A stretch of DNA of 64,000 bases, taken from assembly GCA_900318865.1 (NCBI GenBank), contig ONMF01000009.1:25042-89041 (forward strand), written 5' to 3'. Under the pieces are notes generated by a model. It worked only from the letters and a program-made list of their open reading frames with translations. It was not told the origin of the DNA and made no database searches. The stretch comes from an uncultured Prevotellaceae bacterium. GTDB taxonomy: Bacteria; Bacteroidota; Bacteroidia; Bacteroidales; Muribaculaceae. Position numbers and translations under genes: made by a program. This document shows, in pieces, positions 57,824 through 64,000 of this stretch (its first letter is position 1; each line of letters starts with the position of its first letter).

Positions 57824-58402
57824 TTATAAGTCATCCATCGCGGCATTATTCATTATAGCACCATTAATACCATCTATATATGCCAAGATCACATAGCATT
57901 TACTAACACCCTCATGGGCTAGAGACAAAGCAATCCGCCCCTTTTCAGTGTCGAAGATAGTTTTATAAGTACATCTATCAAACTTTAATTCATATAGTTT
58001 ATCACTATCATTTCTTGGTTGCACCATAGATTGAAAATTTTCTACGACCTCACTTGGTTCACCATATTTCGTTGTAAGCATTTTTTTGAGTTTAGTATAA
58101 TTCGCCTCCAACAATCCCCATTGGTCTAGTGCTGGGAACATTACGCCAACCAGATAGACTAAATCTTTTTGGTCGACAGAACTTACAAACACATAGCAGT
58201 CTTTATATCCAGCGAAATCACCTGTTAGCATGGCTTGACCATTTTCGCTTCCTAGTTTTATGAAGCCTTTTTGAGTCAGTTGCGAACTAAATTGACGAAG
58301 TGTACCATCAATTGGAATACCCTTAAATGTAAGATGCTCACTTTGAGCAAATATAGTTATGGGTAATAATAACAATATGAGAAATAATAATTTAGCTTTC
58401 AT
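57824..58402 (-). CDS. AT-rich secreted hypothetical protein (moron-like)
   Basis: Signal peptide MKAKLLFLILLLLPITIFA then QSEHLTFKGIPIDG; own TACCTTTG promoter. Confidence 0.8.
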   Translation of the reverse strand: MKAKLLFLILLLLPITIFAQSEHLTFKGIPIDGTLRQFSSQLTQKGFIKLGSENGQAMLTGDFAGYKDCYVFVSSVDQKDLVYLVGVMFPALDQWGLLEANYTKLKKMLTTKYGEPSEVVENFQSMVQPRNDSDKLYELKFDRCTYKTIFDTEKGRIALSLAHEGVSKCYVILAYIDGINGAIMNNAAMDDL

Positions 58403-58456
58403 ATTATTGGAATTATTAAATTCAGATAGTGCAAAGGTACTATAATTTTCGTAACC

Positions 58457-58868
58457 TCAGCTACTTCTCCCGAAATTTTTATCGAGGGCGTTGCTCAAAA
58501 TGCCCGTGAAAGTGGCCCCGATATTATCCTCATAGAACTCCTTGATTCGCATTGCCGAGGCGTAATACTTGCGCGAGAACCAACGGCGGCGTTTGCTTGC
58601 CGTGCCGCCAAGCCCAGTCGTTATTGCCGTAGCGGTGCAGGACTTTCAGCCCTGCCCAGCGGCAGAGGCAATAGGCTTTGACATCGGTTGCGGTGTAGCC
58701 CTGCGCGAGCAAGACGAAAACGTACCGAAGCTGCTTGTCCGATAAATCCGCGGTTTAGCGAGAGCAGAAAGAATAACGTTTTTTCTTTTTGCCAAGCGTG
58801 AGCGGATTATCTAAATCTTCCCATCTGGTGGGAAGTTTGAGGTCGATGGAGATTTTGTCTTGTTGCAT
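58457..58868 (-). pseudogene. Fusion of two phage-like gene fragments, interrupted by a 69-bp insertion
   Basis: Reconstructed N-terminal fragment MQQDKISIDLKLPTRWEDLSDKQLRYVFVLLAQGY...HGKQ joins out of frame to the C-terminal fragment KRRRWFSRKYYASAMRIKEFYEDNIGATFTGILSNALDKNFGRSS*. Confidence 0.55.
58743..58817 (+). mobile_element. 63-bp MITE/REP-like insertion flanked by a TAAATC direct repeat
   Basis: TAAATC at 58743-58748 and 58812-58817; internal AATCCGC/GCGGATT inverted repeat. Removing 58749-58817 restores the frame W-E-D-L-S-D-K-Q. Confidence 0.72.
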
Positions 58869-58890
58869 AGAAAAAGCGGTTATCGTACTG

Positions 58891-58926
58891 CGAAGGTACG
58901 GTAACCGCTTCTATGCGTAAAAGACA
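58891..58926 (-). promoter_or_regulatory. Island promoter motif copy 4 (TGTCTTTT-N20-TACCTTCG), embedded in a long inverted repeat (58865-58916)
   Basis: Exact 20-nt spacing; GCATAG..AAGCGGTTA.CGTAC/GTACG.TAACCGCTT.CTATGC. Confidence 0.58.
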
Positions 58927-59420
58927 ACGATTTGTGCCTTATCTCACAATCATGTTGAGCATCGCTCTAACTCGTTCACGCTCGGCAATGCTCATGCAAG
59001 CATGGCGTTGCTCTCACTTAATCACTCGTTTTTTGCCGTCTTCGATGACGATGCCCTTGTAGTCCTTGCCTACGGGTTGGCCCATGAGGTTGTAACGCTG
59101 GCCGCTCTTTGCGGGCGCCACGTTGATGTCCTCAACACCGGTAGCGATGGCCTCCCTGAAGGTGGCGGTCACTGCCACGGGAGCAGCCGGCATCTGGAAG
59201 GTGTAAGTGCCATTCTCACCAGGAGTGAGCTCCAATGAGCCGCCGCGCAGACGCAAGGGTGCGCCGCTCGGCTCGCCGTCGACGGTGGTCACGGTGAGGT
59301 TTTCCAACTCATAACCATCATCGGGTGTCACGGTCAGCGTCACGGTCTCGCCCTCGGCGGCGGTAGTCTTATCACATTCCACTGTGCCGTGCTCAAACGA
59401 TTCGGGCAGACTGATGGCGA
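58913..59420. repeat. ~500-bp direct repeat, copy 1 (3' coding module plus 3' UTR of the surface-protein cassette)
   Basis: Near-identical to 60992-61499 at offset 2079. Confidence 0.92.
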
Positions 59421-60633
59421 ACTGAGGCGACACCACGTTCAGATGCATGACTGACATACCAGGCATATCAGGATTGCCTGAAGCCTTGACGGTATAGGTG
59501 ACACCAGCCTCCAGATTGATCGTGAAATCCAAATTTGAACTGACGTTAAAATATCTGCTAATCAAATTTTCTCCCAGATATATTTCAATAGCGGGACGTA
59601 TTTCAGCATCGCCAGTTGTGTAGAACCTATAATCACCGCTCTCTGTAGGCGTGAATAAATAATCGAAGGAGTTACCATATGGAACGTCAATCACATTCTT
59701 GCCCACAGTGAGGGGGGGGAGTTCGAGTTTGGCGATGTTAAAGATCACGCCCTCGAGTACGTCTTCTACTTGAGCCATCGGCACGACGTAGTAAGTCTCA
59801 TTTGCCTCAAGCATGGCTCCTACCTTGACCGTTTCACCCGCAGGAGCATAACCAGAACCTTTAAGGTCGTTGTTTTTAAGAAGCAGTACTTGCGCTATGG
59901 CGCCGCAGTTCATCGAGAAAACGTAGGCTCCACTTTCTTCGGGCACAAAGGCATATTGTGTGCCATCGTAACTCAAATCTATCTCATTGTCGCCCATTTG
60001 GAGCGATGGCATCTCGTATGACCCGCTGATGACGACATCGGCTGCGGGCATGGTGAATGTGTAAACCATTCCAGATTCATCGACTGTCATGGCGACAGGC
60101 TGGCCGCCGCTGGTGGCCGTCAGACCAGAAATAGTCACTCCTGGACTCACCGTTAGTTTGACTTCTTGTCCCTCGTAGGCCACAACAGGCAGTGGTCCCA
60201 TCACATTTGAGAGTTCGGCACACTCGGGGTCGGGGATGATGATGTGGCCTGGGCGTATCACAACCTGGGCAGAAACACTTGTAGTTAATTCATTATTAGG
60301 TAACAGCCGCATGATATAGGTGGTGCCGGCGTAAAGCTTGTTCGGATAGCCACAGTGGCTGACGTGCGTCTGTAGGAGTGCATCCGGCTCGGACCAGGCA
60401 TAGTACAGAGAGTCGCTCCACAGGTTTAAAGCCATGGAATGCGATTCGGCGCATGTTGTGCTTATCACATAATAACCGGTCTCCTCGGGAGTGAACGACA
60501 GATAGCCCTTGTCACTGTCATTAGAGCCTAACTCAATTCCATTGTTCTCTCCCATTTGGAGCGGGATGAACTCTTGTGCCCACACCGTGGCGGTGGTGAG
60601 CAGTGCGAAAAGAAATAGTAATACTTTTTTCAT
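59014..60633 (-). CDS. Secreted modular surface protein A (three PPC-like beta-sandwich repeats, InlB-B-like repeats, T9SS-like tail)
   Basis: Signal peptide; repeated L..G.N.I...F.P.ESG.Y.F; GETVTLTVTPDDGYEL; YNLMGQPV...KGIVIEDGKK. Confidence 0.82.
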   Translation of the reverse strand: MKKVLLFLFALLTTATVWAQEFIPLQMGENNGIELGSNDSDKGYLSFTPEETGYYVISTTCAESHSMALNLWSDSLYYAWSEPDALLQTHVSHCGYPNKLYAGTTYIMRLLPNNELTTSVSAQVVIRPGHIIIPDPECAELSNVMGPLPVVAYEGQEVKLTVSPGVTISGLTATSGGQPVAMTVDESGMVYTFTMPAADVVISGSYEMPSLQMGDNEIDLSYDGTQYAFVPEESGAYVFSMNCGAIAQVLLLKNNDLKGSGYAPAGETVKVGAMLEANETYYVVPMAQVEDVLEGVIFNIAKLELPPLTVGKNVIDVPYGNSFDYLFTPTESGDYRFYTTGDAEIRPAIEIYLGENLISRYFNVSSNLDFTINLEAGVTYTVKASGNPDMPGMSVMHLNVVSPQFAISLPESFEHGTVECDKTTAAEGETVTLTVTPDDGYELENLTVTTVDGEPSGAPLRLRGGSLELTPGENGTYTFQMPAAPVAVTATFREAIATGVEDINVAPAKSGQRYNLMGQPVGKDYKGIVIEDGKKRVIK

Positions 60634-60673
60634 ACGCGTATGGTTTTAAAAGTGAATAAATGAGTTATACAAT

Positions 60674-60743
60674 CAAAGCGGCACACTCAAGCCGAAGCAT
60701 GAATGTGCCGTATGAGGTTGTTTATAAGAAACCAGTCCTACAA
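60674..60743 (-). promoter_or_regulatory. Conserved 70-nt 5' leader, copy 1
   Basis: Identical to 63251-63320, both 40 nt upstream of the ATG; contains a cUUCGg-capped hairpin. Confidence 0.75.
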
Positions 60744-60991
60744 AATCTGAGTGGCAATAATACACTAACAATCAAAGACTTATGCGTGTTATGCAAGTCA
60801 AATATCCTTTGGGCTGATATGTTAGCGATTGCAATCATTATCTTTATTACCCTTGTTTGAAATACAAATGTATAGCTAATATTTAACATGGCAATCACCA
60901 AACGGCTGAAATTTCAAGAAATCTACGAATTTTGCCGAATGAGAAGGGCTTTTGAGCCGCCAAAGTTCACGACACATCGGTTGGCGGTGTG

Positions 60992-61499
60992 ATGCGTAAA
61001 AGACAACGATTTGTGCCTTATCTCACAATCATGTTGAGCATCGCTCTAACTCGTTCACGTTCGGCAATGCTCATGCAAGCAAGGCGTTGCTCTCACTTAA
61101 TCACTCGTTTCTTGCCGTTCTCGATGACGATGCCCTTGTAATCCTTGCCTACGGGCTGGCCCATGAGGTTGTAACGCTGGCCGCGCTTGGCGGTAGCCAC
61201 GTTGATGTCCTCAACACCGGTAGCGATGGCCTCCCTGAAGGTGGCGGTCACTGCCACGGGAGCCGCCGGCATCTGGAAGGTGTAAGTGCCATTCTCACCA
61301 GGAGTGAGCTCCAATGAGCCGCCGCGCAGACGCAAGGGTGCACCGCTTGGCTCGACGTCAACAGTAGCCACGGTTAGCGTTTCCAACTCGTAGCCGTCGT
61401 CGGGGGTCACGGTCAGCGTCACGGTCTCACCCTCGGCGGCTTCAGTCTTGTCGCAAGTCACCGAGCCATTCTCAAACGATTCGGGCAGCGTAATAGCAA
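60992..61499. repeat. ~500-bp direct repeat, copy 2
   Basis: Near-identical to 58913-59420. Confidence 0.92.
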
Positions 61500-63210
61500 A
61501 TGGCTGATATTCTACGATGGGCATCATCTGGGGTGTGTCGGTGACCGGCGGCAGGGCGAGGAACGCCTCGTTCTGCGGCATCATGTCGCCCAAGTAGCGG
61601 TAGTAGCCCACACCGTAGTTGTTGCCCAGCAAGTAGAAGGTATGCTCTGGGTAGTTTACAGCTGTCCAGTTGGGGATGTATCTGGGGGCGTTCTCGGCGT
61701 GCAGCTCGTTAGCCCGCGTGTCGCTGCTTGTGTCGGTGGTGCGGTTCAGTTGCACGAAATTGTTGCTCTTGCCCGTCTTCAGCACCACCGCCGTTCCAGC
61801 ATTCACTATCTTGTCTTTCACCTCGGTCAACACCACCTTACCGTCTGCCACCGTGGCTTTATAGACCTTCGCCGCTCCCTGCGCCTTGAAGTTGGCGTAG
61901 TCGTTGTAGAACGTCGTCCAACTCGCGTCGTCCCAGTTATTCGTCCTTGGCTTCAATACCAGCGTCGTTGCGTCGGGAAAGGCTTGCGCTCCCATCGTTG
62001 GATTGCCGCTGATGGTGACCGAGTTCAGGGCGTTACATTCGTTGAATGCTTTATTCCCGATGCTCGTCAAGCTGCTCGGGAGGGTGATGCTTGTCAGGGC
62101 GTCACAATTGAAGAATGCCATCGTCCCGATGCTCGTCAGGCCAGACGGGAATGTGACGCTCGTCAGGGCGTAACAATTGAAGAAGGCTTCATTCCCAATG
62201 CTCGTCAGGCCAGACGGGAATGTGACGTTCGTCAAGTGGATGCAAGAATAGAAGGCGTTGTTGCCAATGCTCGTTACATTGGGCATCTTGAGGGTCTCAA
62301 GTTTGGTCCAGATGAATGCTCCGTCAGCGATGCTCGTGACGGAGGCAGGTAGTTCATCTTCCTTTATCTTTATGCCGCTGTTGTCCACGATATGGACATT
62401 CTTTAAAAATCTGCACTGATTGGCCGACGGTATCGTGCTGGCGTCATAGTCTTGGCTGAAGTATATCGTTCTGAGCTCGCTGAAATCTGAGAAGTTCATG
62501 CCCGTTATTCCTACCACTGCTGCGCCGTCGATGATGGCGGGGAAGGCTAATATGTCGCTTTTCGGTAAGCCAAAAGAAGAGAGTCCCGTGACGTGGCATT
62601 GAGAGCCGTCGCTGCTCTTCTGGATATCCCAACCTGGCGCAGCGTTGGATTCGCAGTGCATATAGATGTAGTCCCCACCGGCACCATCGTTCAGGTCGTA
62701 GCCCGTGGCTGCACTAAAGGTGTATATGCCACCGCTCTGCGTCGCGTTGAAGGTGATTTGGCTGACTGCTTCCATATTTTCCATTATTTCCGTGGTGTAG
62801 TAGAGGTGGATGTCGTCACCGCCGGCATTGCTGTTCAGGTCGCCCTTCTTCTGCTTGAAGTGGTCGCCGCCGTCATAGGGCACCAGCTTAAAGCGATGGC
62901 CGTAGGCGTCACGGGTGTCGGGGGCAGTGCCAGAGGCGTCGCTGATAAGGAAACGCGTGACGAAGGTGTGGTTGGGCGATGCCGTACTTCCCTCTTTGTA
63001 GAGCAGATAGATGTAGTCGCTCGACGAGCCGCAGCCCGCATTCAGGTCCTGGTCGATGACCGTCCAGCCTTGGTCAGTGTAGGTATCCTTAAGCTCGTCG
63101 GTCTCGGTTTTGGTGCCTCCTATGAGCATCACCTCGGCGATGTACTTCGGCTCGGCCCACATCGAGAGACTGGCGAGCACAGCCACAAGTAAGAGTATAA
63201 ACTTTTTCAT
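61093..63210 (-). CDS. Secreted modular surface protein B (MABP/beta-prism-like DLNxGAGGDYIY repeats, BspA-type LRRs, InlB-B-like repeat, T9SS-like tail)
   Basis: Signal peptide; DLNAGCGSSSDYIY, DLNSNAGGDDIH and DLNDGAGGDYIY; TFPSGLTSIG..AF..C LRRs; C-terminal ~135 aa about 90% identical to protein A. Confidence 0.85.
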   Translation of the reverse strand: MKKFILLLVAVLASLSMWAEPKYIAEVMLIGGTKTETDELKDTYTDQGWTVIDQDLNAGCGSSSDYIYLLYKEGSTASPNHTFVTRFLISDASGTAPDTRDAYGHRFKLVPYDGGDHFKQKKGDLNSNAGGDDIHLYYTTEIMENMEAVSQITFNATQSGGIYTFSAATGYDLNDGAGGDYIYMHCESNAAPGWDIQKSSDGSQCHVTGLSSFGLPKSDILAFPAIIDGAAVVGITGMNFSDFSELRTIYFSQDYDASTIPSANQCRFLKNVHIVDNSGIKIKEDELPASVTSIADGAFIWTKLETLKMPNVTSIGNNAFYSCIHLTNVTFPSGLTSIGNEAFFNCYALTSVTFPSGLTSIGTMAFFNCDALTSITLPSSLTSIGNKAFNECNALNSVTISGNPTMGAQAFPDATTLVLKPRTNNWDDASWTTFYNDYANFKAQGAAKVYKATVADGKVVLTEVKDKIVNAGTAVVLKTGKSNNFVQLNRTTDTSSDTRANELHAENAPRYIPNWTAVNYPEHTFYLLGNNYGVGYYRYLGDMMPQNEAFLALPPVTDTPQMMPIVEYQPFAITLPESFENGSVTCDKTEAAEGETVTLTVTPDDGYELETLTVATVDVEPSGAPLRLRGGSLELTPGENGTYTFQMPAAPVAVTATFREAIATGVEDINVATAKRGQRYNLMGQPVGKDYKGIVIENGKKRVIK
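62040..62270. repeat. 69-bp tandem repeats encoding 23-aa BspA LRRs
   Basis: CCC(G/A)ATGCTCGTCAGGCCAGACGGGAATGTGACG recurs with a 69-bp period. Confidence 0.85.
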
Positions 63211-63250
63211 AAGCGGTAAGTTTTATGAGTGAATAATAAATTTCACGAAG

Positions 63251-63320
63251 CAAAGCGGCACACTCAAGCCGAAGCATGAATGTGCCGTATGAGGTTGTTT
63301 ATAAGAAACCAGTCCTACAA
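63251..63320 (-). promoter_or_regulatory. Conserved 70-nt 5' leader, copy 2
   Basis: Identical to 60674-60743. Confidence 0.75.
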
Positions 63321-63432
63321 TTTTTGGTGGGGTAAATGCGCTGGTTGTCTGCAATTTATGTAAATCACCTAAGCCGCAGTCACATTGAATGGTATATTGA
63401 CAATCGCGCATCATAAAGCATTAAGATAGTTC

Positions 63433-63471
63433 TCAACTTGGTCTGTCCTTATCTTTAGATTGCTCTCTCAT
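63433..63471 (-). pseudogene. 12-codon stub of the cognate HepT/DUF86 toxin gene
   Basis: MREQSKDKDRPS* overlaps the nucleotidyltransferase 3' end, as DUF86 starts usually do. Confidence 0.55.
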
Positions 63472-63754
63472 AGATTAATTGTCTATCGTAGTTTGCGTCC
63501 TCAGCAATCAGTGGACGCATGGTGCCGTCTTCAACAAGATCAACATCTCGACCAAGCTTCTCCTTTAACTCTCTCCACATTCGGGCGTAAGCTAAAAGTC
63601 CGATTGCCGTACTATGGTCAAATTCAACAAGGATGTCTACATCACTGTCGGGGGTCTCCTCGCCACGAGCGAAAGACCCAAACAGCCATGCTTTCAAGAC
63701 AGGTTGTGTCTTGAAATACTCGGCGATTGTCGTTTTGATGTCTTGCGTACTCAT
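63455..63754 (-). CDS. Minimal nucleotidyltransferase (MntA-type antitoxin)
   Basis: KAWLFGSFARGEETPDSDVDILVEF and LGRDVDLVE. Confidence 0.9.
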   Translation of the reverse strand: MSTQDIKTTIAEYFKTQPVLKAWLFGSFARGEETPDSDVDILVEFDHSTAIGLLAYARMWRELKEKLGRDVDLVEDGTMRPLIAEDANYDRQLIYERAI

Positions 63755-63871
63755 AAGCCAAAACCTAATATATCATAATGCAAAGATAAATAAATTTTCC
63801 AAATGGTAATCGAAATAGCCTAAAAATATTGAGGCTATTCCGATTTTTGACTGACTTTTGGTCAATGCCAA

Positions 63872-64000
63872 TCATGACAGCGACTTGTCGATGATGGTGG
63901 GCACCATATCGACATCCTCCTTGAACACCTTGCCCGAGTCCACCTGACCCTTTAGCCGTTCGAGCGTAGGCGAGAAAAACGCCGCCGAGGCGTTCAAGTG
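63872..64000 (-). CDS. C-terminal end of an unknown CDS (5' part outside window)
   Basis: Open frame HLNASAAFFSPTLERLKGQVDSGKVFKEDVDMVPTIIDKSLS* with GC-rich codon usage. Confidence 0.55.
   Translation of the reverse strand, partial: HLNASAAFFSPTLERLKGQVDSGKVFKEDVDMVPTIIDKSLS

Follow-up and report, generated by a model that had tools for sequence, protein, structure and literature searches.

The window, that is, the whole 64,000-nucleotide stretch of DNA that we analyzed, carries two genes for signal-peptide proteins on its minus strand, and each is preceded by a leader that contains the same 70-nt block. The block includes a weak hairpin (P1) and a stable one (P2), and the end of P2 lies ~45 nt from the ATG of the signal-peptide protein gene in each copy. 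An upstream open reading frame (uORF) precedes or crosses P2. The elements are listed below in window coordinates, together with the uORF of one related leader.

59014-60633, minus strand: gene 1, whose 539-aa product has a signal peptide and an InlB B-repeat domain (open reading frame and domain search)
60669-60678, minus strand: U-rich tail after P2, CUUUGAUUGU (family tail count)
60674-60743, minus strand: copy 1 of the 70-nt block (P1, linker, P2 and GCUUUG), 100% identical to copy 2
60679-60710, minus strand: P2 of copy 1, a cUUCGg hairpin with the invariant base CGGCACA / UGUGCCG (fold and covariation)
60721-60744, minus strand: P1, a weak AU/GU-rich hairpin of 9 pairs that contains the uORF stop codon (predicted fold)
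60722-60838, minus strand: uORF of copy 1, 38 codons plus stop, the stop lying 14 nt before P2
60777-60799, minus strand: P0, a small hairpin within the uORF, directly before a conserved UUGA word (read by equivalence)
60865-60894, minus strand: promoter of copy 1, with TTG, a 19-nt spacer and the -7 box TACATTTG (regular-expression scan)
61093-63210, minus strand: gene 2, encoding a 705-aa signal-peptide protein with BspA-type LRR and InlB B-repeat domains (open reading frame and domain search)
63223-63414, minus strand: uORF of copy 2, 63 codons plus stop, running through P1 and P2 and stopping 12 nt before the main ATG
63251-63320, minus strand: copy 2 of the 70-nt block, 100% identical to copy 1
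63256-63287, minus strand: P2 of copy 2 (match to the 30-nt core)
63781-63788, minus strand: -7 box TATCTTTG before a nucleotidyltransferase (MNT) gene (box by regular-expression scan, gene by domain search)
2497-2673 of related locus L091, minus strand: uORF (conserved reading frame)

The original prediction described an exact repeat, and we confirmed that the minus-strand (sense) sequences 60743-60674 and 63320-63251 are 100% identical. Of the range that it had assigned to the leader (60674-60755), only these 70 nt are shared, and the remaining 12 nt (60744-60755) are specific to copy 1. The flanking DNA diverges as had been stated, with 55% identity upstream and 76% from the hairpin to the ATG, versus 94-100% over P1-P2, and a weaker similarity (80%) runs on downstream of the block into the signal-peptide codons (repeat D2). 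The 30-nt core of the hairpin occurs twice in the window, against an expectation of 0 from 100 shuffles, and whole-genome BLAST and a profile search found no third leader copy in the 2.5-Mb genome to which the window belongs. No match to a T9SS sorting domain was obtained in NCBIfam for the proteins of gene 1 or gene 2.

Bacteroidota promoters follow the consensus TTG-N19-TAnnTTTG, as cited in PMC7366714. The -7 box of copy 1, at 60872-60865, predicts that transcription starts near 60858 and that the 5′ leader measures ~225 nt, which places the 70-nt block well inside the transcript, with the promoter ~120 nt upstream of the block and P2 ~150 nt from the start. When the 230 nt upstream of P2 were aligned in ~45 leaders, most of them had a TAnnTTTG box 130-165 nt upstream of P2, which in ~30 related leaders aligns ~25-35 nt before the ATG of the uORF; none of the leaders has such a box in the stretch from P2 to the start codon of the main gene. 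A placement of the leader upstream of the transcription start, which would have undermined the proposal of an RNA element, is thus contradicted by the canonical promoter upstream of copy 1 and by the lack of any box from P2 to the ATG. A sigma-70 promoter scan is uninformative for this phylum.

The sole canonical box upstream of copy 2 (63788-63781) drives the MNT gene, so the copy 2 leader, which comes after the MNT gene and a HepT stub (63433-63788, minus strand), would be co-transcribed with the MNT operon. Copy 2 falls into a group of ~9 loci (with L010, L015, L017, L022, L023, L028, L080 and L099) at which the leader starts directly behind the end of a toxin gene, at its stop codon, and has no promoter box of its own. 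We take the upstream toxins to be HepT-like on the basis of their C-terminal residues, or in some cases an apparent acetyltransferase toxin. Several other promoter readings were rejected. The TTTG after P2 could be neither a -33 nor a -7 element, as no leader has a TAnnTTTG at the right distance, and the block formed by TTGA, GTTATTRCC and the C-run is inconsistently spaced (23-33 nt) from the next TTTG, which speaks against a second promoter or a phase-variable spacer. A sigma-54 reading of TGGCAC-N5-GGCA was set aside because its GG and GC lie one base closer together than in the consensus, and because the word is the start region of the uORF.

P2 folds as the cUUCGg hairpin that had been described: a stem of 11 pairs is followed by a U-U mismatch and then by 2 pairs that close the UUCG loop. 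The hairpin (14 bp) has a folding energy of -22 kcal/mol (z = -5.67), and none of 200 shuffled sequences was equally stable. The genus to which the window belongs consists of Sodaliphilus-like rumen Muribaculaceae, and a covariance model built from 24 leaders found by BLAST was searched against genomes of 133 of its species. It detected ~58 copies in 31 of these genomes, at 1-4 copies per genome. Across 55 distinct leaders, 91.6% of the P2 cells are paired, versus 25-55% for slid controls. Changes on both sides of a pair, i.e., compensatory changes, were seen at 10 of the 14 pairs in the alignment of these 55 sequences, which was fitted with the model and is therefore biased towards the structure, and at 2 pairs when 24 sequences were aligned independently with MAFFT; both this second alignment and the slid controls are concordant with the structure. 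The loop is always of the UNCG type (UUCG, UACG or UGCG), and the apical part and the distance between the arms vary by ~10 nt across the family. The stem base and the GCUUUG that follows it are nearly invariant while the upper stem and the uORF drift, and the distance from P2 to the ATG is short (32-47 nt), with a constant orientation. Covariation across homologous leaders, which had been suggested as a check, therefore bore out the hairpin, as P2 is conserved between species with compensatory changes and UNCG loops.

The Rfam search suggested alongside it revealed no leader family: cmscan of positions 58000-64000 against Rfam 15, with E up to 10, gave 4 chance-level matches, of which none fell on the leader. 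Outside the genus, BLAST against 200 genomes of the family and the model against 150 (two queries whose genome sets may overlap) returned only chance matches or ordinary terminators. Exact-pattern scans of species-genome and metagenome collections pointed to rumen MAGs labeled Muribaculaceae, Sodaliphilus or, loosely, Prevotellaceae/Bacteroidales, and otherwise to chance. We also considered a palindromic protein site in duplex DNA and rejected it, because the arm spacing varies by ~10 nt and the center co-varies so as to keep its pairs, which argues for a folded single strand. Taken together, these results indicate that P2 is the best-conserved part of an uncatalogued mRNA leader of ~225 bases that is restricted to one genus, and that it very probably functions as an RNA hairpin within a leader that is transcribed.

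The original prediction further proposed that an upstream segment of copy 1 could pair with P2 in an alternative fold, and this did not survive comparison with related leaders. The segment CCACUCAG is kept in L016 and L034, yet the hairpin arm there reads CGGCGCG, a change by which the alternative pairing is lost. Duplexes between the P2 arms and the upstream or downstream leader had mean z values of -0.4 to +0.2 relative to shuffles in 40 leaders, with no fixed partner, and the RNAalifold consensus contained P2 and P0 only, with no antiterminator helix competing with P2. The equivalent of P0 is 86% paired in 18 leaders of the short class, versus 21-52% for slid controls, and the other classes carry different stem sequences at the site with pairing kept. 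The pairing of P1 is marginal (66% of cells across 32 leaders versus 42-55% for slid controls). A riboswitch or T-box was rejected, as there is no consensus structure beyond simple hairpins and the upstream conservation is coding-like.

This coding-like conservation belongs to the uORF, which in copy 1 begins ~20 nt after the predicted transcript start and whose conserved ATG follows the promoter box at ~20-30 nt across the leaders. In 18 gap-free leaders of the short class with a mean pairwise identity of 57%, the uORF frame has no stop positions over 26 codons, whereas stops occur at 9 and 8 positions of the two alternative frames. Variability is highest at third codon positions (entropy of 1.22 versus 1.05 and 1.04), and the synonymous fraction is 0.138, versus ~0.09 in shifted frames. 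Synonymous spellings are found for Leu19 (TTG/CTC/CTG), Asn17 (AAT/AAC) and the prolines (CCC/CCG/CCA/CCT), and Ser and Gly vary as well. The 27 conserved codons specify M-x-L-N-G-N-I-x-A-x3-N-G-x2-N-(P/S)-L-x2-S-(V/A)-L-(L/S)-P-P-(P), and conservation of the frame ceases beyond the prolines. In the translations of the 27-codon and ~31-codon classes alike, Pro-Pro is read in the uORF frame (judged by reading, uncounted), so the differences in length between the classes appear to be frame-keeping. A search of Pfam and of a collection of 5.8 billion proteins found no family for the peptide, only a match to itself. Conservation of this region as pure RNA was rejected for the first 27 codons on these coding signs, though P0 lies inside them, and the substitution pattern indicates translation of the uORF, or at the least selection for an open frame.

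The end of the uORF is less uniform. In about half of the leaders its stop precedes P2 by 5-48 nt, in the rest it falls 35-85 nt beyond the point where P2 starts, and the distance from the proline codons to P2 is variable, with P2 beginning 40-100 nt after the conserved part. In several relatives (L022, L023, L087, L121, L005, L124, L091 and L108) the proline codons are runs of C4-C9, which differ by a single C between L022 (C8) and L023 (C7), between L087 (C9) and the metagenome contig L121 (C8), and between L005 (C5) and L124 (C4). The uORF stop shifts with the run, as the frame passes through P2 in L022 and ends 45 nt before P2 in L023. These length differences are compatible with a possible slippage switch. 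In the two window copies the C-runs are only 2 and 4 long, the Pro-Pro motif is degenerate in both and lost in copy 1 (LLPLRFC), and in many leaders Pro-Pro is written with mixed codons.

Comparison with other loci also revealed how the leaders and their genes are assembled. The promoter and uORF of copy 1 (within window positions 60634-60900) are 95% identical to those of L016, from another species, and the gene at L016 is 96-98% identical to the copy 2 gene (61093-63210), while its P1-P2 is only 72-76% identical to either window copy. As promoter/uORF, P1-P2 and gene body match different loci, the leader is a recombination joint, and its conserved sequence is a homology handle where these three parts reassort between loci. 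The perfect 70-nt identity in the window is, judging from these alignments, a tract of recent gene conversion between the tandem copies. Genes 1 and 2 also have in common a 300-nt block at their 3′ ends that is 96% identical.

P2 has the stable, G+C-rich stem-loop expected of an intrinsic terminator, as its folding energy, z score and covariation indicate, and of 50 tails in the family, 47 contain five or more U within 9 nt, with the longest uninterrupted stretch mostly 3-4 (mostly UUUG). A simple terminator scan left P2 unflagged because of its internal mismatch. Two weak matches of the model outside the genus are plain terminators right after the stops of protein genes, and a metagenome pattern scan added a further one directly after a stop codon.

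L135, 1501-1550: gene-end terminator, weak match to the P2 model
L136, 1501-1556: gene-end terminator, weak match to the P2 model
L117, 5428-5482: gene-end terminator, weak match to the P2 model, from the metagenome pattern scan

All three resemble each other in their A-rich 5′ flank, in a G+C stem capped by a CUCG-type loop and in a tail of the CUUUUGUUUU type, and from C-terminal residues alone we take the genes at L135 and L117 to be rplI and rpsJ, respectively. The terminator at the end of gene 1 (58874-58910, minus strand) has a 15-bp stem and the tail UUUUCUAU. At copy 2 and ~9 other loci, P2 is the first terminator-like hairpin after the upstream toxin-antitoxin operon. Attenuators typically combine such a terminator-like shape with a U tract that is less than optimal. 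Stabilizer, attenuator and switch were the three cis-regulatory roles originally offered, and of these the attenuator fits best, because P2 is terminator-shaped and lies downstream of a conserved uORF; a transcribed leader is upheld, but a switch by alternative pairing is not.

We therefore favor, with a probability of roughly 45%, the reading of P2 as a leaky intrinsic terminator (attenuator) that is coupled to translation of the uORF. The elements in copy 1 follow each other as promoter, open uORF, P2, U-rich tail, an A/U-rich stretch of 32-47 nt and the ATG of the secreted protein. P2 would terminate a fraction of the transcripts, and RNA polymerase would halt there unless a ribosome on the uORF trails closely enough to hinder formation of the hairpin. 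Such hindrance could occur if the uORF crosses P2 (copy 2) or if it stops at the foot of the hairpin (copy 1), and no competing antiterminator helix would be involved. A ribosome slowed at the proline codons would become uncoupled from the polymerase, and read-through would drop. In E. coli, polyproline stalling is known to uncouple the two and to increase termination at intrinsic terminators in translated RNA, an effect that is relieved by EF-P (PMC5021804).

Several observations weigh against the attenuator. The U tract of P2 is interrupted. Ribosome coupling could not work uniformly across the family, since in about half of the leaders, copy 1 among them, the uORF ends before P2 is reached, and a ribosome stalled at the prolines cannot mask P2 directly, since their distance varies. 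The loss of Pro-Pro from copy 1 is a further point against this reading. The invariance of the stem base exceeds what a terminator needs and may point to a partner that recognizes the sequence. Because of these weak points, a role in stability or processing and one in protein binding retain some probability. In the former, P2 would block exonucleases or mark an endonuclease cut and so set the half-life of the mRNA, whose protected 5′ end would then lie ~45 nt ahead of the start codon. The great stability of P2 with its tetraloop, the short and constant distance to the ATG, a stem base that could be recognized by a nuclease or another protein, and the lack of any alternative structure for P2 all agree with this. 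However, known 5′ stabilizers sit at the very 5′ end, so that a hairpin ~150 nt from the predicted start would need an unproven processing step, and neither the consistent U-rich tail nor the conserved uORF is explained, for which reasons we consider this role unlikely. A sequence-specific RNA-binding regulator (an antiterminator or repressor) that reads the stem base and GCUUUG would account for the near invariance of the lower stem and 3′ flank against the drift of the uORF and upper stem, and one leader ahead of functionally diverse secreted proteins would make a regulon. We found no candidate protein, the neighboring genes are heterogeneous, there are only 1-4 copies per genome, and concerted evolution by conversion may also produce the invariance, which makes such a regulator distinctly unlikely.

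The mosaic structure of the loci raises the question of whether P2 acts primarily as DNA, as a recombination site or cassette junction in the form of a cruciform or folded single strand, with any RNA role being secondary. The segments flanking P1-P2 reassort between loci and species, conserved ends around a variable paired center recall folded recombination sites, and the loci lie amid toxin-antitoxin genes and prophage remnants. Against this, the orientation of P2 and its spacing to the downstream ATG are constant, UNCG loops are an RNA-specific stabilizer, no recombinase is consistently nearby, and ordinary homologous recombination at conserved leader blocks accounts for the mosaics, so a DNA site appears quite improbable. 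Integron attC-like sites and DGR targets were rejected given the copy number of 1-4, the fixed orientation to the ATG and the absence of a recombinase or reverse transcriptase nearby. That the hairpin is a functionless relic of recent duplication, the other condition under which the original prediction would fall, is very improbable. Recent conversion does explain the perfect identity of the two copies, but duplication fails to explain ~58 diverged copies in 31 species in which pairing is kept through compensatory changes.

Within the attenuator reading, a more elaborate version can be imagined in which the attenuator is translation-gated and phase-variable. The 27-residue peptide, ending in Pro-Pro-Pro, would set the distance between ribosome and polymerase and might report EF-P, prolyl-tRNA or general translation capacity, and slippage in C7-C9 would switch the uORF stop. 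A uORF stopping before the terminator would then leave the gene off and one running through it would turn the gene on, so that heritable slippage of the C-run could provide portable switching cassettes for surface proteins. We regard this version as doubtful.

The P2 leader is most likely a variation on the known theme of attenuation by a leader ORF. In pyrBI (pyrL) and rph-pyrE of E. coli and Salmonella, a leader ORF runs through a single terminator hairpin and ends near the main start. Similarly, the copy 2 uORF crosses P2 and stops shortly before the main ATG, with no antiterminator helix. Unlike pyrBI, the P2 leaders show no evident logic of UTP-sensitive pausing and have a weaker U tract, the ORF fails to reach the hairpin in about half of them (copy 1 among these), and their cargo consists of genes for secreted proteins instead of a biosynthetic operon. 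The host phylum also differs from the hosts of pyrBI in that initiation is not led by Shine-Dalgarno pairing. The Salmonella mgtL/mgtP leaders resemble ours in that a short ORF containing adjacent proline codons precedes a signal for termination, but they use alternative stem-loops and Rho, whereas no alternative pairing was found here. With the trp/his/phe attenuators, the P2 leaders share the succession of promoter, translated leader peptide, terminator-like hairpin and structural gene; the 2:3 antiterminator was tested for and is absent, and there is no run of pathway amino-acid codons because there is no pathway.

Other parallels concern parts of the leader. As in the ompA, ermC and aprE stabilizers, a stable 5′ UTR hairpin lies upstream of an unstructured initiation region, but those hairpins are within a few nt of the 5′ end, whereas P2 is ~150 nt in and has a U-rich tail. 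The vsp/vsa/vpma systems of Mycoplasma have conserved cassettes of 5′ UTR and signal peptide for variable surface lipoproteins, and the P2 loci likewise place the same leader and signal peptide before unrelated passengers, with recombination in the leader. Unlike those systems, they show no site-specific recombinase or inversion, and every copy has its own promoter or upstream operon. The C7-C9 proline run, whose length differs between close loci and shifts the uORF stop, recalls homopolymeric contingency loci, although it lies in the leader ORF, outside the gene and the promoter spacer.

Muribaculaceae is a major and mostly uncultured family of the gut and rumen. To our knowledge, few cis-acting RNA controls have been described in Bacteroidota, and almost none in Muribaculaceae. 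The P2 leader is a compact, portable expression module before proteins with BspA-type LRR, dockerin or InlB-repeat domains and other secreted proteins, which shape the cell surface and interactions with the host or fiber. If the reading as a uORF plus terminator is true, the leader would represent ribosome-coupled attenuation in a phylum without Shine-Dalgarno pairing, and it would account for how expression of surface proteins is tuned or diversified in rumen Muribaculaceae. In addition, the invariant parts of P2 offer a simple sequence tag to locate such cassettes in rumen metagenomes.

Among 43 downstream genes scanned, BspA LRR (13) and dockerin (6) domains were found, along with InlB repeat, GLUG, PepSY and Sel1, and nearly all of these genes begin with an MKK-type signal peptide. 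Two further features were observed at gene 2. A hairpin with 7-bp arms (CCGCCAA/TTGGCGG) follows its shared 3′ block at 60958-60990 (minus strand), and a 69-nt tandem repeat at 62025-62337, with 3-5 copies that are 74-84% identical, corresponds to its BspA-type LRR units.
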